A program made the position numbers and the translations under genes. Below are positions 14,714 to 56,192 of a stretch of 64,000 bases of DNA, one piece after another. The notes under the pieces were generated by a model that worked only from the letters and a program-made list of their open reading frames with translations, was not told where the DNA came from and did no database searches. This stretch comes from Parafrankia elaeagni (GTDB lineage Bacteria > Actinomycetota > Actinomycetes > Frankiales > Frankiaceae): NCBI RefSeq assembly GCF_000374165.1, contig NZ_KB893672.1, forward strand, positions 115,002 to 179,001, given 5' to 3'. Positions within the stretch are counted from its first letter, which is position 1. Each line of letters begins with the position of its first letter.

Positions 14714-15117
14714 GTAGCTCCTCGCCCCCCGATCCCCCATGCGCGAACGGCACAAGGGCGAGAAGTCACCCTATAGAGCCATCTATTTGCGCGAGTCGGG
14801 CCTGCCGATGGGGTGCGGAGAGCGACGGGGGCGGTCGGGTGAGGTCGCGGGCCGCCGGTGCATAGGCGCCGCATAGGCGCATAGCGGTCTGGGGCCCCTT
14901 CGTCGCACTCTGTGTGGGAGGTGGCATAAGGTGCCCGAAGGTGGGCGTACGCGGCAGCGCGTACGGGAGTGCCGATGGTGGGGGAGACGGTTCGGGCGGC
15001 AACGCCCTGCGCGTCGCCACGGCAGGCTGCATCCCACGACGAGGGGCACCGCGTCACCCCCGTGCCTGCCCCGAGGCCGCGGCACGCGGCGTCGGGTGGA
15101 GTGAGGGGGCGGGCGCG

Positions 15118-24000: not shown

Positions 24001-26248
24001 CCTCGCGCATGACCGGTGCGACTGGGTCGTCGTCCTGGACCGTTTCCTCGGCCTGGACCTGTTCGACGACCCGTCGCGGCGATCCTTCGACGGGCGGCGC
24101 TACATCCTCGACTACGCGCCCGAGTTCCTCGACGGCCTCGGCCACCAGATGGCCATCACGACGGCGCACCGGGCCGACGTCGAGAAGATGTTCCTGCGGG
24201 CGATGACCGAGCTCGGTTTCGAACAGCCCGGTGAGTCGGTGTCCTCGGTGGTCGACGAGCTGCTCCTCGTCTCCGGCCGGCTGATCCTCGCCGCGACCGG
24301 CAACGACAAACGCGCCAAGGAGGCAGTCGCGCTCGCCGCCGTCGTCTCCCATCTGCGCCGGCGCGGCGAACTCGCCGACACGATCATCATCCCGGTTGAC
24401 GCGCACCTCGACCTGTTCGGGCCGCGCGCCCACCGCGGCGGCGCCCACGGCGAGAAAGCGCGACGCTGTGACCTGCTGCTGGTGCGCTTCCCGGGACGCC
24501 GGCTGCACATCGAGGCCGTCGAGGTGAAATCACGCGGGATGCTCGACAGCGAAGACCTCGCCCGCGGCATCGACGCTCAGGCCCGGGCGACCATCGACGT
24601 CGTCCAGCGGCTGTTCTTCGCCGAGCCGGCGCGCATCGACCAGCCGCTGCAACGGACCCGGCTCGCCACCCTGCTCCGGTACTACCTGCGGCGCGCGGCG
24701 CGACGCGGGCTGATCACCGACGCGGCGACGTTCGGCCGGATGCAGGAAGGCATCGACCGGCTCGACACCGCCGACCCCTCGGTCTCCTACCAGCAGAGCG
24801 GCTACATCCTCGTCCAACGAGGCGACGGCGTGGACGAGTTCACCATGGGCGAGACGCGCATCCACCCACTGACAGCCGCGGACCTCGGGGTCGAGACTCC
24901 CGCTGCGGACACCCCCGCGGACACCCCTGCCCTGGACGTGGACGGAACGCCTGAGTCGCCTGAGCGGCCGGAACTGCCTGAGCGGCCGGAACTGCCGGAG
25001 TCGTCGGGATCATCGGAACCGTCGGAACCGTCGGAACCGTCGGGATCGTCGGGATCGTCGGGATCGTCTGAGGGTGAGCGGTCCGGGCAGTCCGACGCCT
25101 CCGACGCCTCCGACGTGGCACCGGCCGGTGGCGAGACGTCCAGCCCGACATCCGTCCCGGAGACCGGCGGAGCCTCCGTGCGTCGTGCTTCTTCTGGCGC
25201 GCTGGAAGTCGTCCGGGTGCCGGTCGGACGAACACTGCCCCCGGAGGAGGACGTCGTCTGGGAAGTTGCCACGATCGGCAGCCCCCACCTGTTCATCCTC
25301 GGAATTCCCGGGCAGGGGAAGTCGGAGACGACGATCCGGCTGCTGCAGGGCGCCGCCGGGAGTGGCCTGCCCGCGCTGGTCATCGACTTCCACGGCCAGT
25401 TCAGCTCCGACCCACGCCGTCCTCGGTCACTGCGGGTGCAGGACGCGGCGGCCGGGCTGCCGTTCTCACCGTTCGAGCTGACCGAAGCCGGCGGACGGCA
25501 CGCGTACAAGATGAACGCGCTGTCCATCTCGGAGATCTTCGCCTACGTCTGCGGACTGGGCGACATCCAGCGCGACGTGGTCTACCAGGCTCTGATCAGC
25601 CGCTATGAGGCGCACGGCCACGGTCAGCTCGCGCCGCCGCAGGGCATCCCCACACTGGACGAGGTACGCGACGCCATCGCGGCCCTGGAGAAGGAACGCG
25701 GGGTGGCGAACGTCCTCGCCCGCTGCCGCCCATTGCTCGAATACGGCCTGTTCACCGACAACACCGGTGTGAAGGTGCAGGACCTGATCCGCGACGGCCT
25801 GGTGGTCGACCTGCACGGCTTCGCCGAAGTGGAACAGGCGCAGGTCGCCGCCGGTGCGTTCCTGCTCCGCAAGATCTACAAGGACATGTTCACCTGGGGC
25901 CAGAGCGGGGAGCTACGGCTCGCCATCGTCCTCGACGAAGCACACCGCCTCGCCAAGGACGCGACCCTGCCCCGGCTGATGAAGGAAGGCCGCAAGTTCG
26001 GCGTCGCCGTCGTCGTTGCCAGCCAGGGCATAGACGACTTCCACCCCGACGTCCTCGCCAACGCCGGCACCAAAATCATCTACCGGGTCAACTACCCGCA
26101 GTCCCGCAAGGCAGCCGGATTCCTGCGCACCCGCACCAGCAAGGACCTCTCCGAGGAACTCGAGCAGCTCCCGGTCGGCAACGCCTACGTCCAGACCCCG
26201 AACATGGCTGTCGCCCGCCGCACCCGCATGCTCCGCCCCGAGACGTGA
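21014..26248 (+). CDS. 1744-aa protein with a C-terminal HerA/FtsK(DUF87)-like P-loop ATPase domain; the N-terminal 1300 aa are uncharacterised.
   Basis: Walker A 'ILGIPGQGKSETT'; Walker B 'LAIVLDEAHRLA'; 'VVVASQGIDDFHPDVLANAGTKIIYRVN' is typical of HerA/DUF87 ATPases. An acidic/Pro/Ser linker 'ESPERPELPERPELPESSGSSEPSEP...' and a (GT)5 repeat are present. Confidence 0.7.
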   Translation: MTDLSPLLATRVAHRLVTDFLQAAPPGRCLRLDHLRLDDCHAVRDAAIAALAETAMGAGCVVAVLGTDVSASDAIVSPERAIELRNRKSTALLLLVPAGTDSPAASSLDNSFESIDIEDLFGKIIRDALQPLDRPLRELFAEVQAAARGNAFPRSRQARAEYLLAVGATAADPVAGGLAAAQHVAGTHLHLFGLIPDQGGASFVSRLAANAQCVKELVKPARSQTDARTRLAECPLRQDDERYREIERYLVALPRLSQRAWLRDLASDDNADLAFNRWPLDLPTDSDLMALQVEPFANAEGIIAASTGLRAGADGEAPTCSARGGFVKITWTTEPAKPKDVARWQVEIIPSEEFYGAETDFDVTLPAAKVAGSRHSHRLTVNVDTEEAERVPALVTVRVSALDRNNQVLRLRDGAPAQATSKEFALDDAPPPESTAVRRDTAVSLPVARLRAEQAGADTDIETPEGWQTADLAYLQLRFGRGSRTHLTRIGVSAPLRELSTRVLAEPETVGRYEAEVGGGQLLAAATATAAGPDWPSGAGRAFLAARREFFEAVRAQPGRGLLEVAAVSDELAALGAKYTAAYGRILRRDSSAPDPRVLTSIDTLRLRIRLGRRHPVDALIMLPTHPLRVAWYLGYHAELEQWRTKMRTLAAKDRRDDADLDLLARLSPARLPFLLAGPDGAPHVFAQNLRLLYGLYLPVDEADPATAVSETVTVLGLPSADASVGEVPPARLADRIRLYRNTHRSPERLRILATNPGSGEFLGEALRVVTADTGDLADTGDPAGTGTGTGTGTGRELGEDEAVTAPHVWIEVFGEGASETNPLPGLRQLQRDIADNRTRRSSDFLDPALEISAAPLDAIEAARDAHLAVLADISRPQLHMSVAETSGGSVSFRGLITQLVTRRDPTELAWDVGIEFPTARGADSTPVTDLHRRFAETVSSLFTAGGDETTSGDRTAASADPADPADPADPARDDRAMRTARIRVQVDGDTRRVLGLAHDRCDWVVVLDRFLGLDLFDDPSRRSFDGRRYILDYAPEFLDGLGHQMAITTAHRADVEKMFLRAMTELGFEQPGESVSSVVDELLLVSGRLILAATGNDKRAKEAVALAAVVSHLRRRGELADTIIIPVDAHLDLFGPRAHRGGAHGEKARRCDLLLVRFPGRRLHIEAVEVKSRGMLDSEDLARGIDAQARATIDVVQRLFFAEPARIDQPLQRTRLATLLRYYLRRAARRGLITDAATFGRMQEGIDRLDTADPSVSYQQSGYILVQRGDGVDEFTMGETRIHPLTAADLGVETPAADTPADTPALDVDGTPESPERPELPERPELPESSGSSEPSEPSEPSGSSGSSGSSEGERSGQSDASDASDVAPAGGETSSPTSVPETGGASVRRASSGALEVVRVPVGRTLPPEEDVVWEVATIGSPHLFILGIPGQGKSETTIRLLQGAAGSGLPALVIDFHGQFSSDPRRPRSLRVQDAAAGLPFSPFELTEAGGRHAYKMNALSISEIFAYVCGLGDIQRDVVYQALISRYEAHGHGQLAPPQGIPTLDEVRDAIAALEKERGVANVLARCRPLLEYGLFTDNTGVKVQDLIRDGLVVDLHGFAEVEQAQVAAGAFLLRKIYKDMFTWGQSGELRLAIVLDEAHRLAKDATLPRLMKEGRKFGVAVVVASQGIDDFHPDVLANAGTKIIYRVNYPQSRKAAGFLRTRTSKDLSEELEQLPVGNAYVQTPNMAVARRTRMLRPET
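23366..23397 (+). repeat. (GGCACC)5 hexanucleotide repeat encoding a (GT)5 linker in the 1744-aa ATPase protein.
   Basis: ggcaccggcaccggcaccggcaccggcaccgga. Confidence 0.85.
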
Positions 26249-26250
26249 CC

Positions 26251-26289
26251 CCGGTGCGGGCCGCTTTCGGCAGCAGCGGCCGGCACCGG
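26251..26289. terminator. GC-rich inverted repeat between the convergent genes; candidate bidirectional terminator.
   Basis: ccggtgcgggccgc-tttcggcagca-gcggccggcaccgg, directly after the TGA at 26246–26248. Confidence 0.4.
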
Positions 26290-26327
26290 GATGGCCGGTG
26301 GTCGCCGACGGCTTGTGGACGGACGCG

Positions 26328-27137
26328 TCAGGTGTGTTTCCCGTCGACATAGACGTCGACCTTCTCGTCGTAGAAGCAGACCAGGCCGGCGATGCGGATG
26401 CTCTCGGGCAGTGGGGTGCGGTAGAGCCAGACGACGTCCTCGTGGATCTTGTCGTTGACCTGGACGGAGAAGTAGCCGGCGGTGCCCTTGTAGGGGCAGT
26501 GGGTCGCGGAGTCGGAAGGCACCAGCAGTTCTGTCCGCACGTCGGTCAGCGGCAGGTAGTAGCGCGGGCGGATGCCGGACTCGAACAGCGCGACCGGGCG
26601 GACGGAGTCGGCGACTGTCACGCCGTCGATCTCCACGCGGACGTGTCGGGAGCTGGAGAGGGCATCGATGCGGTGGTAGGGGTTGCGCGCGTGCCCGTAG
26701 ACGATCTCGTCCTCCTCCAGCCATACGTCCATCGCGTCCCAGTCGAGCCGGACGAGGCCGCGCAGCTGCGGGATGGGGGAGTCGGGGTAGGTGCCTGCGG
26801 CGTCCGGCGCTGTCCGGTCGGCGATGACCACGTCGTGGCGGACGGCGTCGCCCCGGCTCGGCGAGCGCGTGGTCTTCCCGTTCGGTTCGAGGGTCGCGCG
26901 GACGTCCTCGGCGGGCAGATAGTAGACGGGGTAGTGCGGGCCTTCCCAGACCAGTACGGGGCGGATCGTGTCCACGACGACATGGCCGCCGAGCAGTGCT
27001 CTGACCCGCTTGTTCGCCTGCTCGGCGTGGACCCGCCCCCGGCCGGTGGTGGCTGCCGGCTTCACCGACCCGGCCGCCGGAAGGGCGGCCGCACCCGCGG
27101 GTGCGGGTGTGGTGCTGGTGGGAGGAGGTGTTGTCAT
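26328..27137 (-). CDS. DUF427 domain-containing protein (tandem DUF427 repeats).
   Basis: Two copies of 'YYLP..DV' and the 'CPYKGTAGYFSV' signature; Pro/Thr/Ala-rich N-terminus. Confidence 0.7.
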   Translation of the reverse strand: MTTPPPTSTTPAPAGAAALPAAGSVKPAATTGRGRVHAEQANKRVRALLGGHVVVDTIRPVLVWEGPHYPVYYLPAEDVRATLEPNGKTTRSPSRGDAVRHDVVIADRTAPDAAGTYPDSPIPQLRGLVRLDWDAMDVWLEEDEIVYGHARNPYHRIDALSSSRHVRVEIDGVTVADSVRPVALFESGIRPRYYLPLTDVRTELLVPSDSATHCPYKGTAGYFSVQVNDKIHEDVVWLYRTPLPESIRIAGLVCFYDEKVDVYVDGKHT

Positions 27138-27285
27138 GGCGTCTTGTTCCTTCCGCCGCGTCCGCCCACGTCTGCCCGCGTGTGCGGTTTTCCGTCAGGC
27201 CATTCGATCGCGTGCCAGGCGCCAGGTCCAGCGGAACGTCGCGCCGAGGGCGCGGGTGGCGGGAGGCTCGCCGTGCCGGCCGGGT

Positions 27286-29667
27286 TCACCGAGTCGGGTC
27301 AGAGTGGCCGGGGCCGGGGCCGGGGCCGGGGTTGGGTTCGGGGAGCTGGCGAATCCCTGCCCACACGGTGTCACGAGCCCGCGTGATCGCCACGTACAGC
27401 TGTCGGCGTTCCAACCGGGTGCGTTCATGGAACGCGTCGGCAGCCTCGGAAGGGCGCCGGGGGCCGGGGAAGAGATTACGGTCGGGTAGGCAGACATGGG
27501 CGAAGTCGAGGGCCTTGGCGCGGTGGTACGTTCCGACCTTGACGCCTTCACCGTTGGTTCCGTCGTAGTCCATCAGCGATATTGCCGGAATTCCGTGCCC
27601 AGCGAGCACCCGCAGCCAGTGGAACTCTGCCTCGTTCGTCGACACGAGCACGGCCATGTCGCCATACCGGATATCTCTGTCGGCATGCAGCTCCGTGAGA
27701 TGCTTGCACAGTGCCGTGTCCTGCGCGGCGGTGTCTGGCACGGTGACTTCCGTTATCTCACCTCCGGGGCGCTCGATGTCGACGTCGCGCTGTCCGCGTT
27801 CCGGGGTGCCGTCGAGATCGTCGAAGCTGTCGTCGGCGATCACTGTCTGGGCGTGGTGCAGGATCTCCGCCCGGTTACGGTAGTTTCGCGTCAACACCGT
27901 GGAACGTCCCACGACGGGGACACCTGCCTCGGCGAGGGTGAATCCGCCCGGGTAGATGGACTGCTGACCGTCGCCGACGACAAGCAGGCCGTCGGGCTTG
28001 TCTCCGACGAAGGCGTGCAGCAGTTGGAGGCCGACACACGTCAGGTCCTGCACCTCGTCGACGATCACCGCGTCGTAGCGGGTCTCGGAACTTTCGCGAA
28101 CCAGGTCACGAGCCAGGAGCAGCACATCGTCGCGGTCGAGGACACCGCGTTCCGTTCGGAGCTGCTCGTACCGTTCGTAGAGATCCCAGACCGCGCGTCG
28201 GTGGGCCGGTTGCAGCGGCGTACTGCGTCCTACTCGCGCCAGTCCGGCGTACTGCGAGTAGGAGGTGAGGCCCCGGCCCTTGATGACGATCGCGATCTCG
28301 TCCTGCCAGTACTGGGGGCCGAGACCGAGTCCGAGGCCGGGCAGGACCGAGTGCTGTCCAACCTGCGCCCAGGCCCGTGAGAAGCAGGTGTCGGCGATGT
28401 CCTGCAGGTGCCGGCCCGCCAGGTCGTGATCGCGAAGACAGCGGGCGGCGACGGCGTGGACGTTGATGAACTCGATGCGCTCGACATGATCGGGCGCCAT
28501 CCGGGTCAGCAGAGCGCGGTAGACCGGACCAAGCGTGCGCACCTTCGACGTGAACAGCACCCGGTCTCCGCGGGTGGCCAGGAACTTGGCGCGATGTAGC
28601 GCGACGACCGTCTTGCCGGTGCCCGCCGCGCCCCGGACACGTGCCGGACCAGACCACTTCCGGCCGGCAAAGCGCGCCTGCGCCGGGTGCAGCCAGGTCA
28701 TCCATGTCTCGATCGGTTCACGGGCGGCGGCGTTGAGCAGCTCCTGCCACAGTTCGTCGCGACTCAGCAACGAGCCCTGACCGGTCAACGGACCTTCACC
28801 CGGTTCACCGGCCTCCGAGAGGTCGGGCCGGGCCGACGGCCCTGGGGCGGACGTCCGCCTGCCGGCGGGGGGCGGATCTTCCCGGCGTGCCAGCGGGTGT
28901 CCCGCCGGCCGGGAGGTCAGCACTACCTGGTGCGCGGCGCGGGGCATCGGAGGACATCCACGCTCCAGTTCGTCCAGTAGCCGTTCGACGAGGTCAGGGG
29001 TCAGGCGAGCGCCCCGACGCGCCAGCTCCCTGGCGAGGTCGTGCTCCCCGAGCACGGTCACCGCGTCGATCGGTTCCCGGATGTTCCTGCGCCCGGCCAG
29101 GGCGAGCAGCGCCACCACCTCGGTCGGTGGCAGGCCCGCATCTGCCAGCACCTCCGCCACCGCGGCGGCCTGATCCACAAGCTTGCGAATGTCGTCATCC
29201 GCATCGGCGTCGCCGCGCCACAAACGGCCGCGCTCGACGGAGGCCTCCCGCCAGTTCTTCACGTCCACGACGAAGACCCCGCCGGGCCCCACCAGGATCA
29301 CGTCGATGTTGGCCCTGCGGGTGCCCGGCCACTGCCTGTCCGGCAGCACATGCCACCCGGCATTCTCCATAGCTATCAGCGCCCGGGTCACGTTCTGCTC
29401 GGCCCGGCCACCGGCTTCCCACCGCTGGCGATGGCGGTTCAGCTGGTGCTGGGTGTCGTTCAGATGCTGGATCTGCCGCTCGACTCCGGCGATCTCCATG
29501 CCGAGCAGCACGGCCTGACCGAGGGCGGACGGCTCCGGCAGCGAGCGGATGCCCCTCGCTGCTCTGGCGCCCGGGAGCGCCGCGGTGGTGCGGGGCCGCG
29601 GCCTCTCTGCATCGACGGTCGGAACAGCAGTGTCGGGGAGCATCGACGGTGATTCGTGGGCACGCAC
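27286..29667 (-). CDS. NERD-domain protein fused to a UvrD/REP-like superfamily-1 DNA helicase.
   Basis: NERD 'NIDVILVGPGGVFVVDVKNWRE'; Walker A 'GAAGTGKTVVALHRA'; Walker B 'DAVIVDEVQDL'; C-terminal helicase motifs 'DFAHVCLPD...YVAITRARD'. Confidence 0.8.
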   Translation of the reverse strand: MRAHESPSMLPDTAVPTVDAERPRPRTTAALPGARAARGIRSLPEPSALGQAVLLGMEIAGVERQIQHLNDTQHQLNRHRQRWEAGGRAEQNVTRALIAMENAGWHVLPDRQWPGTRRANIDVILVGPGGVFVVDVKNWREASVERGRLWRGDADADDDIRKLVDQAAAVAEVLADAGLPPTEVVALLALAGRRNIREPIDAVTVLGEHDLARELARRGARLTPDLVERLLDELERGCPPMPRAAHQVVLTSRPAGHPLARREDPPPAGRRTSAPGPSARPDLSEAGEPGEGPLTGQGSLLSRDELWQELLNAAAREPIETWMTWLHPAQARFAGRKWSGPARVRGAAGTGKTVVALHRAKFLATRGDRVLFTSKVRTLGPVYRALLTRMAPDHVERIEFINVHAVAARCLRDHDLAGRHLQDIADTCFSRAWAQVGQHSVLPGLGLGLGPQYWQDEIAIVIKGRGLTSYSQYAGLARVGRSTPLQPAHRRAVWDLYERYEQLRTERGVLDRDDVLLLARDLVRESSETRYDAVIVDEVQDLTCVGLQLLHAFVGDKPDGLLVVGDGQQSIYPGGFTLAEAGVPVVGRSTVLTRNYRNRAEILHHAQTVIADDSFDDLDGTPERGQRDVDIERPGGEITEVTVPDTAAQDTALCKHLTELHADRDIRYGDMAVLVSTNEAEFHWLRVLAGHGIPAISLMDYDGTNGEGVKVGTYHRAKALDFAHVCLPDRNLFPGPRRPSEAADAFHERTRLERRQLYVAITRARDTVWAGIRQLPEPNPGPGPGPGHSDPTR

Positions 29668-30504: not shown

Positions 30505-30945
30505 GTGCATTCCTCCGCCGATCCGCCCGGTGCGGCACTGTTCGATCGCGTCGAGCTGGGCGCGTCCTTCCGCGTGGCGCTGGCCGTTGTGGCGGTCGCG
30601 CTGGCGCTGGTGGGCGTCTGGCTCCTGGTCCGTCTGCTGCTCTTCCCGCTGCGCAGGCTGCGTGGGCTGCGGGGGCGCGGGGTGGCCTCCTCCCGCACCG
30701 AGCTGACGGGTCGGGTGTGCGTCATCCGCACCGGCCGGGTGGGCCCTGAGTTCGGCCAGGCGGAGGTCAGGGCGGCCGACGGGTCGTCCGCGCTGGTCCA
30801 GGTGCGACATCCGAACCTCAACCCGTTGCTGCAGGCGGGCAGTTCCGCCGTGATCTACAGCTATGACCCTGCCGGCGAGTTCTTCTGGGTGAGCCCGCTG
30901 GACTTCACCCGTGAGCTGGACCGCGACCTCCCCGCGGCCGACTGA
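30505..30945 (+). CDS. NfeD-family membrane protein (OB-fold partner of SPFH/flotillin).
   Basis: N-terminal transmembrane segment 'VALAVVAVALALVGVWLLVRLLL' followed by a β-rich OB-like region 'GRVCVIRTGRVGPEFGQAEVRAADGSSALVQVRH'. Lies immediately upstream of the flotillin gene. GTG start. Confidence 0.6.
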   Translation: MHSSADPPGAALFDRVELGASFRVALAVVAVALALVGVWLLVRLLLFPLRRLRGLRGRGVASSRTELTGRVCVIRTGRVGPEFGQAEVRAADGSSALVQVRHPNLNPLLQAGSSAVIYSYDPAGEFFWVSPLDFTRELDRDLPAAD

Positions 30946-30961
30946 GAGCGTAGGAAAGCAG

Positions 30962-33040
30962 ATGAGCCTCGTTGCGATAGTCCTGGGCGTGTTGTTCGGT
31001 GTCGTCATTCTCGTCGCGCTGGGCGCAGTCGTCGCGGTCAGCCGGCTGTCCCGCCGGGTGGAACAGGGAAAAGCTCTTATCATCTCGCGGTCCAAGAAGG
31101 TCGACGTCACCTTCACCGGTGGGATCGTGTTGCCGATCCTGAACCGCGCGGAGGTGATGGACATCTCCGTCAAGACGATCGAGATCCGGCGGACCGGCCG
31201 GGAGGGGCTGATCTGTCGGGACAACATGCGGGCGGACATCCGCATCACGTTCTTCGTCCGGGTCAACAAGACAGTCGAGGACGTCATCAAGGTGGCGCAG
31301 GCGATCGGCACCGCGCGGGCCAGTGACCAGACGACACTGCAGGAGCTCTTCAACGCCAAGTTCTCGGAAGCGCTGAAGACCGTCGGCAAGCAGTTCGACT
31401 TCGTCGACCTCTACACGAAGCGCGAGGACTTCCGAGACCAGATCATCCAGGCCATCGGCCGCGATCTGAACGGCTACAGCCTGGAGGACGCCGCCATCGA
31501 CTTCCTCGAGCAGACCCCGATGAGCCAACTCGACCCGGCCAACATCCTCGACGCCCAGGGCATCCGGAAGATCACCGAACTGACCGCGATCGAGCATGTC
31601 CGTACCAACGAGTTCCAGCGCCAGGAGGAGAAGGAGGTCACCCGCCAGGACGTCGAGGCGCGGGAGACGATTCTCGAGCTCGAGCGGCGGCAGGCCGACG
31701 CCGAGACCAGGCAGGAGCAGGAGATCGCGACGTTGCGGGCCCGGGAGGAGGCGGAGACCGCCCGGGTGCAGGCCGAGGAACGGCTGAAGGCGACCTCCGC
31801 GGCGCTGCGCGCCGACGAGCAGCTCGGCATCCAGCGGGAGAACCAGGCCCGGGAGATCGCCGTCGCGGAGAAGAACCGGGAGCGGGTCATCGCCATCGAG
31901 ACCGAGCGGATCGAGAAGGACCGCCAGCTCGAGGTCGTCGCCCGTGAGCGGGAGACCGAGCTGTCCCGGGCCGCCAAGGACAGGGAACTGGAAGTGCAGA
32001 AGCAGGCGGTCGCCGAGGTGCTCCGTGACCGGATCGCCGTGGAGCTGACGGTCGCCGAGCAGGAGGAGGGCATCAAGCGACTGCGGGCCGTCGAGGATGC
32101 GGAGCGGCTGCGGCAGGCTCTGGTGATCGAGGCGGAGGCCGAGGCCCAGCAGGCTCTCGTCAAGGACATCAAGGCGGCCGAGGCCGCCGAGGAGGCCGCC
32201 GGCCACCGGGCGCGGGAGACGGTGGTCCTCGCCGAGGCCCGGCAGCGGGCCGCCGATCTGGACACCCGCGCCAAGATCCAGCTGGCCCAGGGCCTGCAGG
32301 CCGAGGCCGCCGCCCAGGGACTGGCCGCGGCCACGGTGCGGGAGCGGGAGGCGGAGGCGATCGAGAAGGTCGGTCGGGCCGAGGCCGTGGTCGACCGGGA
32401 GAAGGCACTGGTCGCCGCGGCGGCGATCCGGGAGCGGCTGCGGGGCGAGGCCGACGGCCTCACCGAGAAGGCGGCGGCGATGGCGGCGTTGGACGAGGCG
32501 AGCCGGGGCCACGAGGAGTACCGGCTGCGGCTGGAAGCCGAGAAGGAGATCCGGCTCGCCGGCCTCGACATCCAGCGTCGGATCGCCGAGTCCCAGGCCG
32601 TGGTGCTGGCGGCCGGACTGGAGAACGCCGACATCGACATCGTCGGCGGCGAGAGCATGTTCTTCGACCGGCTGCTGAGCTCGGTCACCATGGGCCGGGC
32701 GGTGGACGGCTTCGTCGACCACTCCACCGTCGTCGGGGGCCTGGCGGGCAACTGGCTGGACGGCTCGGCGGACTTCACCGCGGATCTGACCCGGATGCTC
32801 GGTTCGCTGGGCTCCGGTGACGTCCAGAACCTCACGGTGTCGGCGCTGCTCCTGCAGATCCTCAAGGGGGGCGGGCTGGACGCCGCCAGGCTGCGGGAAC
32901 TGGCGGACGTGGTGGCCGGCACGGCGCAGCCGGAGACCACGCCCGCCGCGGCGACGAGGTCCGCCGCCACCGCGAAGCCCACGGCCACCGCGAAGCCCAC
33001 GGCCACCGGTGGTGCCACCGGCCGTGGCACCACCCGCTGA
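30962..33040 (+). CDS. Flotillin / SPFH (band-7) family protein with a long coiled-coil.
   Basis: N-terminal transmembrane 'MSLVAIVLGVLFGVVILVALGAVVAV'; SPFH core 'VDVTFTGGIVLPILNRAEVMDISVKTIEIRRTGREGLICRDNMRADIRITFFVRVN'; extended E/R/A-rich heptad region; AGGAAAG Shine-Dalgarno before the ATG at 30962. Confidence 0.85.
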   Translation: MSLVAIVLGVLFGVVILVALGAVVAVSRLSRRVEQGKALIISRSKKVDVTFTGGIVLPILNRAEVMDISVKTIEIRRTGREGLICRDNMRADIRITFFVRVNKTVEDVIKVAQAIGTARASDQTTLQELFNAKFSEALKTVGKQFDFVDLYTKREDFRDQIIQAIGRDLNGYSLEDAAIDFLEQTPMSQLDPANILDAQGIRKITELTAIEHVRTNEFQRQEEKEVTRQDVEARETILELERRQADAETRQEQEIATLRAREEAETARVQAEERLKATSAALRADEQLGIQRENQAREIAVAEKNRERVIAIETERIEKDRQLEVVARERETELSRAAKDRELEVQKQAVAEVLRDRIAVELTVAEQEEGIKRLRAVEDAERLRQALVIEAEAEAQQALVKDIKAAEAAEEAAGHRARETVVLAEARQRAADLDTRAKIQLAQGLQAEAAAQGLAAATVREREAEAIEKVGRAEAVVDREKALVAAAAIRERLRGEADGLTEKAAAMAALDEASRGHEEYRLRLEAEKEIRLAGLDIQRRIAESQAVVLAAGLENADIDIVGGESMFFDRLLSSVTMGRAVDGFVDHSTVVGGLAGNWLDGSADFTADLTRMLGSLGSGDVQNLTVSALLLQILKGGGLDAARLRELADVVAGTAQPETTPAAATRSAATAKPTATAKPTATGGATGRGTTR

Positions 33041-33050
33041 GGCCGGCAGC

Positions 33051-36000
33051 GTGGCCCCGACCCCGACCCCGACTTCGACCCGGCCGGCCGTGACCGAGCG
33101 GCGGGCCGTGACCGAGCAGCAGGCTGCGACCGAGCAGCAGGCCGTGACCGAGCAGGGTGTGACCGAGCAACAGGGCGCGACTGACGGGGACAGCTACGAG
33201 GTGCTGCGGGCCCGGTTGGCCGAGCAGGCAGCGGAGCTGACCCGCCGGGCCGACATTCTCAACGCCCGCCGGCTGGCGGTGTTCGGCGGCAGTGGGCTCC
33301 GCCTGCTCGGCGCCGAGCAGGTCAGCACCCGGCGTCCCTGCGTGCCGCAGGACATCGTGGCACTCGGTGAGTACCTGCTGCTCGGCAGCAACCTGCCCAC
33401 CGGCCTGCCTGCCGCCCTCCCCACCGCGCTCCCCGTCGGTTCGATGCCCGGCGGGGAGGAACCTGCGGAGGTCACCGACGCCCTGTCACTGCACCGCCTG
33501 GTCCGAGCCGTCGGCGGCGGCGGGGACACGGAGGCCGGCGGCTCCCGCTTCCGGTTCGACGACGCGGGCCCGGACGGGGACGTCCTGCCCGGCGTCCTGC
33601 CCGGCGTCCTGCATGACCCGACGCTGCACCGTGACTTCCGCGAGCTCTACCGGTACTACCGTGACACCCGGCTGCTCCGGCTTCGGCGCCTCGACGACAG
33701 AGTGCTCGCCGTCTTCCAGACCGGCCGCCGGCCGGAGGACATCCGGGTGCTGCGGTGGTGGACCGGCACCCGCGGCACCGTCGACTACCTGGACAATCTT
33801 GGCGAGCGGGACCATGTCCTCCCGCCGGCGCACGACCTCGACTGGATCGCCGCCAGCCGCGACGATCACGTGCTGGGACGACACCCGCACGTCTCGGTGC
33901 AGGGGGCCGTGTTCGTCTCCACCGTCGGCGGGGCCCTCACCGTCAAGACCGAGAACGACACCGAAAGCGCCGACGGGATCTACCGCGAGCCCGTCGACGA
34001 GCCGCTGCAGAGCCTGGCCGACGCCGACATCCAGCATGCCCGGGTCGGGCCGCTGGTCCTGCTGCGGATCCGGCCGTACAAGGAGACCGGGTGGCGGCAC
34101 CTGGTGTTCAACACCCGCAACGCCCGGATCGTGCGCCTCGACGGGATCGGGCAGGGATGCCGACGGCTGCCCGCGGAGCAGGGGATCATCTTCGCCGACG
34201 GCTACCACCTGGCCACCGGCACCGTCCGCACCTTCGGCACCCTCGGTACCGACTCGTCCGACCTGGAGTTCGACCTGGAGTTCGACCGGGTCGTCCACGC
34301 GCCCGGCGGGGAGGACGTGCTCTACGTCTTCCACGCCCGGAACACGGGCCGGTTCCTCCTGCTGCCGTACAACGTGATCCGCCAGGATGTCGCCACGCCG
34401 CTCGCCTGCCATGGCTACGCCCTGTTCGGCGACGGCACCCTGGTCCTGCTGCGAACCCCGCCTGCCGCGCCCGCTCGCACCCACGCCGTGCAGATCTGGC
34501 AGACGCCGTACGGACACACAGCCGAATCCACGACCGCGACCGTGACCGTGACCGGGCCGCTGGAGCGGATCGGCAACGCGGACCTGGTGCAGGGGATCTC
34601 GGACTGCATCTCGGTGGCACGCCTGGTGGCGGAGATGACGCCGTCCCGCGCCGTGCTCGAGGCGCTGATCGGGGCCTGCGGCCGGGCGTTCGACCGGTAC
34701 CACTGGCTGGGCGACCCGGCCCTCGGTGACCCCGGTGACCCCGGCGCCCCCGGTGACCCCGGCGCCCTCGGCGATCTCGCTGACCTCGGCGCGCCGCTCG
34801 CCGAGGTCCGGGCCACCGCCGAGCGGATGCTCGCGGAGTTCGAGACGGTCCAGGTACTCGCCGAGGCAGCCCGGGCCACGCTCGCCACCGCCGCCGCCGA
34901 GGTCGACACCCTGCTCCGGCGCGTCCGCGACGAGACACCGCGGACCGCCGGCGCGGCCGTGACGGCGCTCGCCGACCTGCGCCGGGCCCAGGGCCGCCTG
35001 GTCGCGCTGCGCGACGTCCGCCACATCGACCTGGCGCGGATCGACGCACACGCGGCCGAGCTGGACGCCGGGATCACGGCCGCCGGCCGGCGCGCGGTGG
35101 AGTTCCTGCAGGGCGACGGTGCCTTCGCCGACTACCACGCGGAAACCGAGCAGCTGGCCGCGCAGGCGGCAGCCATCGCCAGCGCCGCGGCCGCGGCACC
35201 GATCGCCGAGCGGCTCGCCGCACAGACCGCCGGCCTGGAAACCGTCGTCGAGATCGTCACCGGCCTCGACATCGTCGACACCGCCGTGCGCACCCACCTC
35301 CTGGACCGGATCGGCGAGGTCTTCGCCGACGCCAACAGGGTGCGGGCCATCCTGGACGCCCGCCGCGGGCAGCTGTTCGACACCGAGAGCCGGGCCGTGT
35401 TCGCGGCCGAGTCCGCGCTGCTCGGCCAGGCCGTCACTGCCGCGCTGACGATCGCCGACACCCCTGAGCGCTGCGACGAGCAGCTGGGACGACTGCTCGT
35501 CTCGCTGGAACGCCTGGAAGCGCGCTTCGGCGACTCCGACGACGCCGGCGCCGAGCTCGCGGCCCGGCGGGCCGACCTCTACGACACGTTCTCCGCCCGC
35601 CGCCAGGAGCTGGTGCAGGCGCGGACGCGGCGGTCCGGCCGGCGAGCCGACTCCGCCGGACGGATCCTGACCGGCATCCGCCGCCGCTGCGTCGGCCTGC
35701 GCTCCCTCGACGAGATCAACACCTACTTCGCGACCGACCCGATGGTGACCACGCTGCACGGCATCGTCACCGAGCTGCGTTCCCTCGGCGAGCAGATCCG
35801 CGCGGACGAGATCGCCGGCCGGGTCGAGGCGGCGCGCCTGGACGCCCGCCGGGCCCTGCGCGACCGGGCCGACCTCCACGAGGGCGACGCGGTCCTCCGC
35901 CTCGGGCGTCACCTGTTCACGGTCAACACCCAGCCGGTCGACCTCGCTCTCGTCCCCGACGGGGACGACCTGGCGTTGGTGGTCACCGGGACGGACTACC

Positions 36001-38351
36001 GCCGCCCCGTCCGCGCCGCCTCCTTCGCGCAGACCAGGGCGTTCTGGGATCAGCCGCTGCCGTCGGAGTCACCCCAGGTGTACCGGGCCGAGTACCTGGC
36101 CACGCGGATCCTCGCCGACGCCGTGGCCGGAGCGGGTGGGTTGTCCGTCGCCGCGCTGGCCGAGGCGGCGGACACCGGGAACGATCTGCTCGAGCTGGTG
36201 CGCCGGGCGGCCGGGAGCCGCCACGACGAAGGGTACGAGCGCGGCGTCCACGACCGGGACGCCGCCAGGATCCTCGCCGCGCTGGCCCGGTCCTACCGGC
36301 AGGCGGGGCTGCTGCGTTACCCGCCGGCCGTCCGGGCCGCCGCGCAGCTGTTCTGGGCCTGCGGCACCGACGACGCCGGCCGCGCGGCCTGGGGCCGCCG
36401 GGCCGCGTCGCTGGCCCGGGCGCGGGCCGCGTTCCGCCCCACCCGGCAGACCGGGCCGAAACAGATCGACGACCTGTGCGCCGAGCTCGCCGTCGCCGTC
36501 GCGGAGTTCCTCACCGGCACCGGCACCGGCACCGGCACCGGGACCGGGACCGGGACCGGGACCGGGACCGGGACCGGGACTGGGACTGGCACTGGCCGCG
36601 CGCACCCGACCGCTCTCGCCGACCTGACCGCCCTCGTCGAGGAGCTCGGCGGCGTCGACATCGTCGGGGAGTACCTGTTCGAGGAGCTCGCCGGCGAGCC
36701 CGCCGGGTTCGTGACCAGCGCCGCCGCGCGCGAGCTGCACACCCGCTTCCGGCGGGCGCTCGGAGAGCTGGGCGTCGGCGACAGCTTCGACCACGATCTG
36801 CGGGCCTTCGACGACGACCTGACGGCCCGCTACCAGCTCGCGGCAGCCTGGCTGGGCACCTTCCACCCGGCCAGCGGGCCCGACGCCGGAAACACCGCGG
36901 ATATGGAGGACACCTCGAGTACGACGAACGCCGCGGGCCCCCAGGACGCCGCGGGCGGCGTGGCCGACATCCCGGAAGCGGTCGCCGTACTGGTCTGCGG
37001 CTCGCGGCTGCCCCGGCACGACTCGTCGGCCCACCTGGCAACCAGCGTCGACGGCCTGCTCGGCAGCCATCCGCGCCTCGAGGGCGGACGGCTTGAGCTG
37101 CGCCTCGACGAGACCCTGGCACGCACCCACCGATTCCACACCGAACGGGTCCCCGCCCACCGTGCCTACCGGCGGGCGCGGGACGAGCTGATCTCCCAGG
37201 AGCGCCGGCGGCTGCGGTTGGACGAGTACCAGGCGACGGTGCCGGCCAGCTTCGTCCGCAACCGGCTCGTCGACGAGGTCTACCTGCCGCTCGTCGGCGC
37301 GAACCTGGCTCGCCAGCTCGGCACCGCGGGCGACGGCAGCCATCCCGACCGGATGGGCCTGCTGCTGCTCGTCTCGCCGCCCGGCTACGGCAAGACCATG
37401 CTGATGGAGTACGTGGCGAGCCGCCTCGGCCTGGTGTTCGTGAAGGTCGACGGCCCGGCGCTCGGCGGCGCCGTCACCTCGCTCGACCCCGCCGCCGCAC
37501 CCGACGCGGCCGCCCGCCGCGAGATCGAGAAGATCTCCTTCGCGCTCGAGCTGGGCAGCAACGCGCTGCTCTACCTGGACGACATCCAGCACACCGCGCC
37601 CGGACTGCTGGAGAAGTTCATCCCGCTGTGCGACACCCAGCGTCGGATGGACGGTGTCTGGGACGGCCAGGCCCGCACCTACGACCTGCGCGGCAAACGC
37701 TTCGCCGTGTGCATGGCGGGCAACCCCCACACCGAGTCCGGCGGACGGTTCCGCGTCCCGGACATGCTCGCCAACCGCGCCGACGTGTGGAACCTCGGTG
37801 ACGTCCTCTCCGGCCGGGACCAGCTTTTCGCCCGCAGCTATCTGGAGAACGCGGTCACGTCCAACCCGGTGCTGGCCCCGCTCGCCGGCCGCGAGCACGC
37901 AGACCTGGAACTCCTGATCCGGCTGGCGGAGGGCGACCCCTCGGCGCAGCCCGACCGGCTCAGCTATCCGTACCCGCAAGCCGAGCTGGACCAGATTCTG
38001 GCCGTGCTGCGCAAACTGGTGCGTGTCCAGCAGGTCGTGCTCGCCGTCAATCGCGCCTACATCGCCTCGGCCGGGCAGGACGACGCGGCCAGGACCGAAC
38101 CGCCCTTCCTGCTGCAGGGCTCCTACCGGAACATGAACAGGCTGGCGGAGCACATCGTCCCGGTGATGAACGACGAGGAGCTGGACGCCCTGATCCACGA
38201 CCACTACCTCGCCGAGGCGCAGACCCTCACCTCCGGCGCTGAGGCGAACCTGCTCCGGTTCGCCGAGCTGCGCGGATCGCTGACCCCGGACCAGGCCACC
38301 CGATGGGCCGAGGTGAAGGCCCGCCACCAGCGGAGCCGGGACACCCGCTGA
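33051..38351 (+). CDS. Giant protein (about 1770 aa) with a C-terminal AAA+ (AAA_5/MoxR-like) ATPase module, flotillin-associated; start uncertain.
   Basis: Walker A 'LLLLVSPPGYGKTMLMEYVA'; Walker B 'ALLYLDDIQH'. N-terminal TEQQA-type repeats. (GT)13 linker encoded by a hexanucleotide repeat at 36516–36594. A GTG at 33051 is the first start after the flotillin stop. Confidence 0.65.
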   Translation: MAPTPTPTSTRPAVTERRAVTEQQAATEQQAVTEQGVTEQQGATDGDSYEVLRARLAEQAAELTRRADILNARRLAVFGGSGLRLLGAEQVSTRRPCVPQDIVALGEYLLLGSNLPTGLPAALPTALPVGSMPGGEEPAEVTDALSLHRLVRAVGGGGDTEAGGSRFRFDDAGPDGDVLPGVLPGVLHDPTLHRDFRELYRYYRDTRLLRLRRLDDRVLAVFQTGRRPEDIRVLRWWTGTRGTVDYLDNLGERDHVLPPAHDLDWIAASRDDHVLGRHPHVSVQGAVFVSTVGGALTVKTENDTESADGIYREPVDEPLQSLADADIQHARVGPLVLLRIRPYKETGWRHLVFNTRNARIVRLDGIGQGCRRLPAEQGIIFADGYHLATGTVRTFGTLGTDSSDLEFDLEFDRVVHAPGGEDVLYVFHARNTGRFLLLPYNVIRQDVATPLACHGYALFGDGTLVLLRTPPAAPARTHAVQIWQTPYGHTAESTTATVTVTGPLERIGNADLVQGISDCISVARLVAEMTPSRAVLEALIGACGRAFDRYHWLGDPALGDPGDPGAPGDPGALGDLADLGAPLAEVRATAERMLAEFETVQVLAEAARATLATAAAEVDTLLRRVRDETPRTAGAAVTALADLRRAQGRLVALRDVRHIDLARIDAHAAELDAGITAAGRRAVEFLQGDGAFADYHAETEQLAAQAAAIASAAAAAPIAERLAAQTAGLETVVEIVTGLDIVDTAVRTHLLDRIGEVFADANRVRAILDARRGQLFDTESRAVFAAESALLGQAVTAALTIADTPERCDEQLGRLLVSLERLEARFGDSDDAGAELAARRADLYDTFSARRQELVQARTRRSGRRADSAGRILTGIRRRCVGLRSLDEINTYFATDPMVTTLHGIVTELRSLGEQIRADEIAGRVEAARLDARRALRDRADLHEGDAVLRLGRHLFTVNTQPVDLALVPDGDDLALVVTGTDYRRPVRAASFAQTRAFWDQPLPSESPQVYRAEYLATRILADAVAGAGGLSVAALAEAADTGNDLLELVRRAAGSRHDEGYERGVHDRDAARILAALARSYRQAGLLRYPPAVRAAAQLFWACGTDDAGRAAWGRRAASLARARAAFRPTRQTGPKQIDDLCAELAVAVAEFLTGTGTGTGTGTGTGTGTGTGTGTGTGTGRAHPTALADLTALVEELGGVDIVGEYLFEELAGEPAGFVTSAAARELHTRFRRALGELGVGDSFDHDLRAFDDDLTARYQLAAAWLGTFHPASGPDAGNTADMEDTSSTTNAAGPQDAAGGVADIPEAVAVLVCGSRLPRHDSSAHLATSVDGLLGSHPRLEGGRLELRLDETLARTHRFHTERVPAHRAYRRARDELISQERRRLRLDEYQATVPASFVRNRLVDEVYLPLVGANLARQLGTAGDGSHPDRMGLLLLVSPPGYGKTMLMEYVASRLGLVFVKVDGPALGGAVTSLDPAAAPDAAARREIEKISFALELGSNALLYLDDIQHTAPGLLEKFIPLCDTQRRMDGVWDGQARTYDLRGKRFAVCMAGNPHTESGGRFRVPDMLANRADVWNLGDVLSGRDQLFARSYLENAVTSNPVLAPLAGREHADLELLIRLAEGDPSAQPDRLSYPYPQAELDQILAVLRKLVRVQQVVLAVNRAYIASAGQDDAARTEPPFLLQGSYRNMNRLAEHIVPVMNDEELDALIHDHYLAEAQTLTSGAEANLLRFAELRGSLTPDQATRWAEVKARHQRSRDTR
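36516..36594 (+). repeat. Hexanucleotide tandem repeat (GGCACC/GGGACC), about 13 copies, encoding a (Gly-Thr)13 linker.
   Basis: ggcaccggcaccggcaccggcaccgggaccgggacc...gggactgggactggcactggc. Confidence 0.9.
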
Positions 38352-39715: not shown

Positions 39716-40288
39716 GTGAATCTCAAGGACTGGGCTGCGGCGAACGGGGTCGGGTACTCGACCGCCCGTCAGTGGTTCCTTGAGGGCAGGCTGCCCGTGC
39801 CCGCGCGCAGGGTCGGTGGGCTGATCCTGGTCGACGAGCCGGCCCGGCCGGCGGCGGTGGAGACGGTCGCGGTGTACGCCCGGGTCTCGTCCGCCGACCA
39901 GCGATCGGATCTTGACCGGCAGGTCGCGCGGGTCACCATGTGGGCGGCTGGGCAGGGCCTGCCGGTCGGCCGGGTCGTGACCGAGGTCGGCTCCGCGCTG
40001 AACGGGCACCGCCGGAAGTTCCTCGCCCTGCTACGCGACCCGGCCGTGACCACGATCGTCGTCGAGCACCGGGACCGGTTCGCCCGGTTCGGCGCCGAGT
40101 ACGTCGAGGCCGCGCTCGCCGCGAACGGCCGGCGCCTGCTGGTCGTCGACCCCGCCGAGGTCGATGACGACCTCGTCCGGGACATCACCGAGATCCTCAC
40201 GTCGATGTGCGCTCGGCTCCACGGCCGCCGGGCCGCGGTGAACCGCGTCCGGCGCGCGGTCGCTGCCGCGACCGAGGCTGCCGAATGA
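39716..40288 (+). CDS. tnpA: IS607-family transposase TnpA (serine recombinase).
   Basis: 'YARVSSADQRSDLDRQ' (catalytic Ser region); 'VVEHRDRFARFG'; N-terminal MerR-type HTH. Confidence 0.85.
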   Translation: MNLKDWAAANGVGYSTARQWFLEGRLPVPARRVGGLILVDEPARPAAVETVAVYARVSSADQRSDLDRQVARVTMWAAGQGLPVGRVVTEVGSALNGHRRKFLALLRDPAVTTIVVEHRDRFARFGAEYVEAALAANGRRLLVVDPAEVDDDLVRDITEILTSMCARLHGRRAAVNRVRRAVAAATEAAE

Positions 40289-41613
40289 CGACGACGCAGG
40301 CGTTCCGGTTCGCGCTCGACCCGAACGACGCCCAGCTTGCCGGCCTGCGCCGCCACGCCGGGGCGGCCCGGTTCGTCTACAACTGGGGCCTGGGCTTCGT
40401 GAAGGCCGCGCTCGCGCAGCGCGACGCGGAGCAGAGCTACGGCCTGGCCGGTGATGCGCTGACCGTGGTGCCGTGGACGCTGCCCGCGCTGCGGCTGCGC
40501 TGGAACCAGGTGAAGAACGACGTCGCGCCGTGGTGGGGCGAGTGTTCGAAGGAGGCGTTCTCCGCCGGACTCGACCAGTTGGCCCGCGCGTTGAAGAACT
40601 TCTCCGACTCGAAGAACGGGAAGCGCGGGGGACGGCGGGTCGGTTTCCCCCGGTTCAAGAAGCGAGGGAAGGCCCGCGACTCCTTCCGGTACACGACCGG
40701 CGCCTACGGCCCAGCCGGCGACCTGCACGTCAGGCTACCCCGGATCGGCCGCGTCAAGGTCCACGAACCGATGGGAGCGCTCACCGGCCGGTTGGCCGAG
40801 GGGCGGGGACGGCTGCTCGGCGCGACCGGGTCCCGCACGGCGGGCCGCTGGTTCGTGTCGTTCACCGTGCAGGCCGAACGGGAGGTTCCCGAAGCGCCGT
40901 CACCACGGCAGCGGGCCGGCGGGCCGGTCGGTGTCGATGCCGGCGTGAAGCACCTCGCGGTCCTCTCGACCGGCGAGCAGGTCGACAACCCGAAACCACT
41001 CGCCCGCTCCCAGCGGAAGCTACGGAAGGCGTCCCGGGCCTACTCCCGGTCGAAGCCGGGCAGCGCCGGCCGCCGGCAACGCGCCGCCCGGCTCGGAAAG
41101 ATCCACGCGCACGTCGCGAACCAGCGACGCGACGGCCTGAACAAGCTCACCACCCGGCTCGCCACGAACCACGACGTGGTCGTCGTCGAGGACCTGCACG
41201 TCGCCGGCATGGTCCGCAACCGGCGCCTCGCCCGCGCCGTCGCCGACACCGGGATGGCCGAAATCCGCCGCCAACTCGACTACAAGACCCGGTGGTACGG
41301 CTCACGGTTGCACATCGCGAACCGCTGGTACCCAAGCTCGAAGACCTGCTCCGGCTGCGGCTGGCGAAACCCAAGCCTGACGCTGTCGGACCGCACGTTC
41401 CACTGCCAGTCCTGCCACCTGGTGATCGACCGTGACACCAACGCGGCGGTCAACCTGCGCAACCTCGTCGCCGCCAGTACATCGGAGACGCACAACGCCC
41501 GTGGAGCCGACCATAAGACCCCGCTCGCGGGGCCGGTGGCTGTGAAGCGGGAACCGGGCACGGCCGCGGCCGGTCAGACCCGGGGTGCCCCACCGCAAGG
41601 TGAGGCGGCATGA
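40285..41613 (+). CDS. tnpB: TnpB (OrfB, IS605/IS607 family; RuvC-like RNA-guided nuclease).
   Basis: 'FRFALDPNDAQ' N-terminus; RuvC-like 'VGVDAGVKHLAVLSTG' and 'VVVVEDLHVAGM'; zinc finger 'CSGCGW...CQSCH'; 'NAAVNL'. The ωRNA is expected across the 3' end and downstream of the gene. Confidence 0.85.
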   Translation: MTTTQAFRFALDPNDAQLAGLRRHAGAARFVYNWGLGFVKAALAQRDAEQSYGLAGDALTVVPWTLPALRLRWNQVKNDVAPWWGECSKEAFSAGLDQLARALKNFSDSKNGKRGGRRVGFPRFKKRGKARDSFRYTTGAYGPAGDLHVRLPRIGRVKVHEPMGALTGRLAEGRGRLLGATGSRTAGRWFVSFTVQAEREVPEAPSPRQRAGGPVGVDAGVKHLAVLSTGEQVDNPKPLARSQRKLRKASRAYSRSKPGSAGRRQRAARLGKIHAHVANQRRDGLNKLTTRLATNHDVVVVEDLHVAGMVRNRRLARAVADTGMAEIRRQLDYKTRWYGSRLHIANRWYPSSKTCSGCGWRNPSLTLSDRTFHCQSCHLVIDRDTNAAVNLRNLVAASTSETHNARGADHKTPLAGPVAVKREPGTAAAGQTRGAPPQGEAA

Positions 41614-56048: not shown

Positions 56049-56192
56049 CGGTGGGCGGTGGGTGTGATGCCGTCGGTCGGTCCCGGTGTGGCGGTGGCGC
56101 TGGCTGTGCCCCGTGCCGGCCGGAAAAAGACATGCCGTGGTTTTCGAGAAAGTGCCTGGACGTAAAAGACCCTGATCCGAGAGAGGGGTTCA

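Follow-up and report, generated by a model that had tools for sequence, protein, structure and literature searches.

Bacterial flotillins have been studied widely, and their mechanism is still unclear. In Escherichia coli YqiJ-YqiK and Bacillus subtilis YuaF-FloT (YuaG), the gene directly 5′ of that for a TM-anchored, long coiled-coil flotillin encodes a small protein with a transmembrane (TM) part and a C-terminal beta-domain. The locus described here has this arrangement too, with differences: the E. coli yqiJK operon stops after yqiK and has no ATPase gene, and YqiK has 553 aa against 692 aa for the flotillin of our locus. This locus lies in a 64-kb stretch of Parafrankia elaeagni DNA (contig NZ_KB893672.1, positions 115,002 to 179,001; GC ~72%), called the window below, in which a module at 30505-38351 encodes a small membrane protein, a flotillin and a giant AAA+ ATPase (the Frankia module).

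The SPFH survey of Hinderhofer et al. 2009 (PMC2636767) described NfeD-flotillin pairs (SPFH2 subfamily) and "giant" flotillins, with no ATPase partner. The closest described system is that of Ravi et al. 2024 (mSystems 9:e00847-23; PMC11237479), an operon in which a CesT/Tir(DUF2170)-PspA dyad is combined with three further components. The supplementary table of that study gives these for Dokdonia donghaensis as YqiJ-YuaF, followed by Band-7 + coiled-coil + flotillin, followed by beta-propeller + coiled-coil + AAA-ATPase, and an example neighbourhood from the same organism is centred on ANH61663.1. Abbreviated operons without the CesT/Tir-PspA dyad are widely distributed according to the same authors, who proposed a role in sub-membrane assembly and dynamics. 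The first-pass annotation of the window had presented the module as being of unknown function; its operon type was in fact already catalogued in 2024 within the phage-shock-protein (PSP) envelope-stress network, and the Frankia copy is a trimmed, PspA-less member.

Results

A three-gene operon conserved across several bacterial phyla

The module is a genuine three-gene operon, conserved across several bacterial phyla. In the window it consists of three co-directional open reading frames (ORFs):

30505-30945, plus strand: small membrane protein gene, 146 aa
30962-33040, plus strand: flotillin gene, 692 aa, ATG start with the Shine-Dalgarno sequence AGGAAAG ahead
33051-38351, plus strand: giant AAA+ ATPase gene, 1,766 aa, GTG start

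A contig scan with one genome per species yielded 13 loci, 11 of which include upstream DNA, and in all 11 a flotillin orthologue is encoded immediately upstream of the ATPase on the same strand. These 11 loci span Parafrankia, Nonomuraea, Actinomadura, an Acidimicrobiales metagenome-assembled genome (MAG), the gammaproteobacterium Alkalilimnicola ehrlichii and an Acidobacteriota MAG. Single-homologue look-ups showed this triad in Micromonospora, Nocardiopsis and Umezawaea, and of seven remote representatives (31-47% identical), six also have the flotillin gene next to that of the ATPase. Overall, the flotillin gene is directly upstream of the ATPase gene in 20 of 21 loci, in Actinomycetota, Acidobacteriota and Gammaproteobacteria, with gaps that range from an 8-nt overlap up to ~190 nt; the literature extends the pairing to Bacteroidota (Dokdonia, PMC11237479). 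The synteny of flotillin and giant ATPase that the first-pass annotation had put forward as a check is thus conserved, and beyond the actinobacteria. Co-conservation of the ATPase with flotillin across phyla supports its suggestion of a membrane-associated machine as the right general idea.

The identities of flotillin and ATPase to their counterparts fall in parallel from locus to locus (flotillin/ATPase, in %: 97/86, 90/76, 74/57, 65/56, 62/50, 54/46, 48/43, 35/34, 29/31). Nearly every locus has the small YqiJ-like gene upstream (9 of 11 by tblastn, plus an ORF in Alkalilimnicola), and the Acidobacteriota locus encodes a probable counterpart of 260 aa, with a short 34-residue match only. That locus also has an additional ORF (L011, 7219-7797) for a 192-aa protein that consists of SPFH alone and has 37% identity to the N-terminus of the flotillin; it separates the flotillin gene from that of the presumed small protein.

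Genes flanking the triad differ between genomes, and most of them have housekeeping functions (purA/purD, dnaK-grpE-dnaJ-clpB, cobW, prs/rplY). In Nocardiopsis gilva (L015, 1-6153) the triad lies directly 3′ of a dnaK-grpE-dnaJ-hspR(MerR)-clpB heat-shock cluster, a neighbourhood that is perhaps a coincidence, as it was sighted once.

Within the window, all three frames have coding-type GC content at third codon positions (GC3 of 0.85 for the small gene, 0.93 for the flotillin gene and 0.92 for the giant gene). Ratios of dN/dS of 0.19-0.42 against the Parafrankia orthologues indicate purifying selection on all three genes within the Frankia clade; the best matches of the window proteins are from Frankia and Parafrankia. 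The stop of the small gene and the flotillin ATG at 30962 are 16 nt apart. A flotillin start at GTG 30911, which would give a 709-aa ORF, was disfavoured because the ATG at 30962 is the one with AGGAAAG ahead. The first-pass annotation had placed a gene for ~1770 aa 11 nt past the flotillin stop; a single adjoining gene does follow, at a measured distance of 10 nt (GTG at 33051) and with 1,766 codons for amino acids. Its exact start is uncertain, since family conservation begins only at ~aa 46 and the first ~45 residues are of low complexity.

Relation to the PspA-linked operon type

The Frankia module matches the operon of Ravi et al. (PMC11237479) in gene order and in the domain architecture of all three proteins, the Dokdonia ATPase being compared by description. 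The PspA link itself was found in other genomes: locus L021 has a PspA_IM30 gene immediately ahead of the triad, locus L026 has a DUF2170 + PspA dyad immediately downstream of it, and in Alkalilimnicola such a dyad lies ~4 kb from the triad. L026 represents the full form, with DUF2170 and PspA beside an ATPase with the DUF3686 domain, and ties the DUF3686 family, to which the giant protein belongs (see below), to the full DUF2170-PspA form. The window differs in several respects. Searches by tblastn with two PspA queries and one DUF2170 query found neither gene in the 64 kb, and no phospholipase D gene is present; lacking the CesT/Tir(DUF2170)-PspA dyad, the locus is an abbreviated form. The Frankia small protein has one TM helix instead of three, and the Frankia ATPase has no C-terminal tail.

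The small membrane protein and the flotillin

The first-pass annotation had named the small protein a canonical NfeD, and this did not hold. Pfam NfeD (PF01957) gave no match for the small protein at E ≤ 0.01, nor for the small protein together with six orthologues at E ≤ 1. The family profile matched E. coli YqiJ weakly (hhalign probability 52%, E 1.4e-4, 143 aligned columns, near full-length), and YqiJ_N matched one of seven family members (E 0.019). Among PDB sequences neither the small protein alone nor the family profile found a match, and NCBIfam returned none for the small protein, the flotillin or the giant ATPase. Hydropathy analysis indicates a single hydrophobic/TM segment at aa 16-50, followed by a C-terminal beta-rich domain of ~70 aa, so that the three TM helices before the soluble domain ("3TM" of Ravi et al.) are absent. 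The six aligned orthologues from other genomes have 183-236 aa and several hydrophobic segments; the Frankia/Parafrankia protein keeps the last TM helix and the C-terminal beta-rich domain, and the N-terminal 60-90 residues of the orthologues are missing from it. The motif FVG..C.IRTG....FGQAEV...DGS...V.VR is common to the small protein and to the orthologues directly 5′ of flotillin. Judged from its sequence, the small protein is a weak YqiJ/YuaF-like ("NfeD2-like") flotillin partner that is N-terminally shortened in Frankia.

The SPFH/flotillin assignment of the second gene was borne out. Pfam Band_7 (PF01145) matches at aa 32-175 counted from ATG 30962 (aa 49-192 of the 709-aa ORF from GTG 30911) with an E-value of 6.7e-10 and 39.7 bits against a cut-off of 23.6, and a BLASTP alignment with E. 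coli YqiK extends through the coiled coil (439 aa, 30% identity, E 5e-34). A TM anchor (aa 1-31) is followed by Band_7, a long E/A/R-rich coiled coil and a C-terminal region with a T/A/P-rich low-complexity tail. The Pfam Flot model does not match, and a PDB sequence search found no match for this protein. With scores of 223-565 bits, other ATPase-linked flotillins are its nearer relatives; YqiK reaches 157 bits. The domain match and the alignment with YqiK indicate a true flotillin.

The giant ATPase

The first-pass annotation had recognised a single domain in the giant protein, an AAA domain at the C-terminus. Pfam searches and structure prediction reveal a richer architecture, with two further Pfam domains and, in the predicted fold, a beta-propeller and helical bundles:

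33234-34703, plus strand: DUF3686 / predicted beta-propeller, aa 62-551, with an N-terminal helix ahead
35121-35369, plus strand: DUF7902, aa 691-773, within a predicted helical-bundle stack at ~aa 510-940
37362-37733, plus strand: AAA+ core, aa 1438-1561, in which Walker B is followed by a beta-hairpin and the GNPxTES sensor-1 region
37374-37397, plus strand: Walker A, SPPGYGKT, aa 1442-1449
37569-37592, plus strand: Walker B, LYLDDIQH, aa 1507-1514

The match to DUF3686 (PF12458) is strong (E 3.1e-168), as is that to DUF7902 (E 7e-25). Over the core, AAA (E 4e-5, 24.5 bits) and AAA_5 (E 4.6e-5, 23.9 bits; cut-off 22) both match marginally. The protein has no TM segment and a single P-loop; the regular expression [AG]xxxxGK[ST] has zero matches in the 1,766 aa, the sole P-loop being the Ser-initiated SPPGYGKT at aa 1442-1449.

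An AlphaFold 2 model of aa 46-1150, built on a 76-sequence alignment, has a mean pLDDT of 79.5. In order, it predicts a helix, a beta-rich domain with ~27 strands between model residues 39 and 440, a stretch of long helices of ~430 residues, then a small beta unit, then further helices. Foldseek places the beta domain among propellers of the PDB, with Sec12 (E 9.8e-6, prob 1.00) and FBXW8 (prob 1.00) at E-values of 1e-5 to 1e-4, and the clathrin terminal domain, TolB and other propellers also matched; in the model, the DUF3686 region is thus a beta-propeller domain. The helical region is predicted to fold into spectrin-like helical bundles.

The model of aa 1196-1766 (mean pLDDT 75.1) shows an AAA+ alpha/beta core with a helical lid/C-domain. 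Its Foldseek matches, RuvB, Skd3, NorQ, MCM and ClpA at E 0.02-0.1, are weak and clade-neutral, with RuvB, Skd3, NorQ and MCM all within E 0.02-0.05. When PDB sequences were searched, both the single protein and a profile of 76 sequences aligned with classical AAA/RuvB proteins over no more than the P-loop region (E 1e-4 to 1e-2). The C-terminal AAA+ module of the first-pass annotation stands, and its "AAA_5/MoxR-like" label finds no specific support: the AAA and AAA_5 scores are equal, the best Foldseek E-value of 0.02 is undiscriminating, and assignment to either the MoxR-like or the classical-AAA clade was dropped. MoxR/AAA_5 ATPases share with the giant protein the marginal AAA_5 match and, by eye, the layout after Walker B (beta-hairpin, GNPxxE...R). 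They differ in that the giant protein is ~5x longer, that no von Willebrand factor A (vWA) partner gene occurs in the neighbourhoods examined, and that the classical AAA model fits equally well.

The motifs PPGYGKT.. and LYLDDIQH singled out earlier are present and essentially invariant across the family. Among 67 full-length representatives that share 31-60% identity with the query over the N-terminal (DUF3686) region, this applies to SPPGYGKT, LYLDDIQH, GNPxTES, PDMLANRAD and LQGSYRNMN, and the invariance of the Walker, sensor and further motifs argues for a working enzyme.

The family is large (>3,357 homologues). The best 120 homologues have 56-60% identity to the query and lengths of 1,609-1,775 aa, with 96-100% query coverage in 119 of them and 32% in one row; the closest of them is from a Frankia strain, at 86% identity. 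An exhaustive search with the N-terminal region among 1.84 billion cluster representatives gave 633 matches, of which the complete ones measure 1,600-2,036 aa, which indicates a fixed architecture. In an alignment with 123 homologues, conservation runs unbroken along the protein except for a few insertions in few of the aligned sequences. The ORF is one intact gene: the possibility of several fused or frameshifted genes, raised in the first-pass annotation, was ruled out by these near-full-length homologues and the continuous conservation.

The TEQQA repeats and the linker of ~13 TG units noted earlier are likewise real, and both are encoded by in-frame DNA tandem repeats. Tandem Repeats Finder detected three in-frame repeats in the gene, given here with their column occupancy in the 123-homologue alignment:

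33086-33174, plus strand: tandem repeat, 18-bp unit x5.1, encoding the TEQQA-type N-terminus; occupancy 0.40-0.69
34710-34792, plus strand: tandem repeat, 9-bp unit, encoding a GDP/GAP-type stretch between propeller and helical region; occupancy 0.50
36513-36586, plus strand: hexanucleotide microsatellite ACCGGG x12.3, encoding the (TG)~13 linker from the helical region to the C-terminal module; occupancy 0.4-0.6

These micro-/minisatellites are confined to poorly conserved linkers and may differ in length between strains. Most family members carry a C-terminal tail of 20-280 aa that starts G..DDP..R..G.L..L. The Frankia/Parafrankia ATPases (window 38300-38351; L001, L002, L008) lack it and end "...RSRDTR*", and no remnant of the tail is visible in the other reading frames of their ends.

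Three further loci depart from the usual form. The ATPase match is split across two frames in two draft genomes, Parafrankia sp. EUN1f (L008, 10001-15231) and Alkalilimnicola ehrlichii AK92 (L009, 10001-14772), which could reflect sequencing errors or pseudogenes; the frame break in the former lies ~50-60 residues past the position of the (TG)n repeat. A Halioglobus MAG (L013, 9806-11116) has a lone 436-aa ORF, 53% identical to the AAA+ module (query aa 1307-1678) and with no propeller or helical region, which represents a fragment or else a short form in its own right.

Genomic surroundings of the Frankia module

In the window, the module is flanked by a defence-island-like cluster on one side and by an IS607-type element on the other. 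The stretch at 11654-29667 is defence-island-like, and its genes together may form a MADS/Dnd-Ssp-like system:

11654-14755, minus strand: DrmD-like SNF2 helicase
14914-19341, plus strand: NERD + Ser/Thr kinase + STAND-like protein, PD-T4-6/mad6/PglW-like
19338-21017, plus strand: 559-aa protein with a mad7/SspG-like C-terminus
21014-26248, plus strand: DndH/mad8/HerA-like ATPase, 1,744 aa
26328-27137, minus strand: DUF427 protein
27286-29667, minus strand: NERD + UvrD helicase

Beside this cluster, at 85-7149 on the minus strand, lies a gene for a giant helicase of ~2,354 aa with DEAD/Helicase_C and MrfA Zn-binding (MZB) domains. On the other side, ~1.4 kb 3′ of the giant gene and past an HxlR and a RibD_C gene, the IS607-type element (39716-41613, plus strand) encodes a serine resolvase and a TnpB/OrfB_IS605 protein with a Cas12f-like TNB domain. 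A large, uncharacterised protein of 1,382 aa with a DUF6603 domain (E 2e-142) is encoded at 56166-60314 on the plus strand.

The defence-like flank is common only to Parafrankia colletiae, the closest relative, and a functional link between the module and the upstream cluster was rejected on this ground.

Discussion

The near-constant pairing of a flotillin subfamily with a very large, conserved AAA+ ATPase points to an energy-dependent flotillin machine. We favour, with slightly more confidence than doubt, a mechanism in which a scaffold facing the cytoplasm, formed by the flotillin together with the small protein, draws in the soluble ATPase; once oligomerised, the ATPase would spend ATP on remodelling membrane-bound assemblies in envelope stress. 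TM anchors are found in the small protein and the flotillin, and the giant ATPase is soluble by prediction. By analogy with known SPFH/NfeD complexes, the flotillin, aided by the small OB-domain membrane protein, would form an oligomeric scaffold or cage on the cytoplasmic membrane face. The near-obligate gene linkage and the parallel divergence suggest that the ATPase is recruited to this scaffold. It may then oligomerise via its single AAA+ module, as AAA+ proteins generally do, and it is predicted to hydrolyse ATP on the strength of the invariant Walker A/B and sensor motifs. The energy might serve to remodel, assemble or disassemble membrane-bound assemblies, with envelope stress as the likely setting. 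Candidate targets are the flotillin scaffold, the PspA/ESCRT-III-like polymers encoded nearby in some genomes, and client membrane proteins that the propeller would capture.

In HflK/C-FtsH and prohibitin/m-AAA, a membrane-anchored SPFH scaffold is likewise combined with an AAA+ ATPase, an analogy of principle only. Unlike FtsH, the giant ATPase has neither a TM anchor nor a protease domain, and it has a predicted beta-propeller and a helical region of ~450 residues; unlike HflK/C, the Frankia SPFH protein is of the cytoplasm-facing flotillin type.

Several observations weigh against the remodelling mechanism, or against carrying it over to Frankia unchanged. PspA is lacking from the window and was found nearby in three of ~21 loci, which makes the PSP connection an occasional one. 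The one locus of the 21 that breaks the pairing is a Victivallales contig in which the ATPase gene has no flotillin neighbour, so that, at least in terms of gene order, an ATPase of this family can occur without the flotillin. Walker B reads DD, not the usual DE, throughout the family. No related solved structure beyond the P-loop region was found in the PDB, and a literature search found no experimental work on any family member. Finally, with no C-terminal tail on its ATPase and TM helices lost from the small partner, the Frankia system may work somewhat differently.

Among the alternatives, quality control of membrane proteins fares best, although we regard it as rather unlikely. Here an SPFH-caged or SPFH-recruited AAA+ hexamer, FtsH/HflKC- or p97/erlin-like, would extract or unfold damaged membrane proteins. 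SPFH + AAA+ partnerships are an established theme, as in HflK/C-FtsH, and Staphylococcus aureus FloA-NfeD, which reportedly stabilises unfolded proteins, offers a precedent. The predicted N-terminal beta-propeller is of a kind that typically binds peptides or proteins, and in Nocardiopsis the module directly follows dnaK-grpE-dnaJ-hspR-clpB; that heat-shock neighbourhood, however, occurs in one locus only, the operon has neither a protease domain nor a partner protease, and the AAA+ pore-loop region is modelled at low confidence. Quality control is a close variant of the remodelling mechanism, and the present data do not separate the two.

A narrower proposal, which we think doubtful, makes the giant ATPase a dedicated ATP-driven assembly/disassembly factor for flotillin cages, with a Vps4-like role for SPFH scaffolds. 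PspA is a relative of ESCRT-III, and in Vps4-ESCRT-III/Snf7 and the PspA-associated AAA+ ATPases, as here, an AAA+ ATPase is found genetically beside a membrane-remodelling scaffold. Vps4 differs in that no MIT domain was found by Pfam in the giant ATPase, the constant partner of which is flotillin and not PspA. The predicted outline of a propeller and a long helical stalk resembles membrane-coat proteins in Foldseek comparisons (clathrin terminal domain plus linker, IFT-A, Elp1), at low TM-scores. The near-obligate linkage and the parallel divergence are compatible with such a cage factor and do not prove it.

Anti-phage defence, to which SPFH/NfeD pairs have been linked according to the first-pass annotation, is distinctly improbable for the module. 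The flotillin scaffold would sense membrane perturbation by phage, with the giant ATPase as effector or switch. The module does lie beside a defence-island-like cluster and adjacent to an IS607-type element, and PSP-type systems were first noticed via phage stress. The defence-like flank is confined to P. elaeagni and P. colletiae, with housekeeping genes as flanks elsewhere, and PADLOC-DB 2.0 has zero families matching any of the three proteins at E ≤ 0.01. Furthermore, the best 120 homologues are spread across many actinomycete genera at a near-uniform 56-60% identity (apart from the one Frankia protein at 86%), and Pfam searches found no nuclease, protease, TIR, Sir2 or pore-forming effector domain.

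An SMC/Rad50/SbcC-like DNA-repair ATPase, for which flotillin linkage would be incidental or a mere membrane tether, is very improbable: the NCBI/Pfam names for the DUF3686/DUF7902/AAA family ("DNA repair ATPase", "ATPase involved in DNA repair") and the long helical/coiled-coil region speak for it, but the only P-loop belongs to the C-terminal AAA+ module, with neither an N-terminal Walker A nor a split ABC head, Pfam gave no SMC_N, AAA_23, ABC, nuclease or DNA-binding match, the conserved partners are two membrane proteins and not nucleases, and no literature support for the name was found under DUF3686, PF12458 or "DNA repair ATPase" with flotillin. The name was probably carried over from coiled-coil similarity.

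The window itself adds little that is new, the operon type having been catalogued in 2024. What is gained is a corrected annotation, "DNA repair ATPase" being unsupported, together with three defined genes that can be targeted genetically in a tractable actinomycete. If the giant ATPase is indeed a flotillin-cage factor, it would supply the missing energy-consuming step in the dynamics of bacterial flotillin microdomains and provide a handle on flotillin function.

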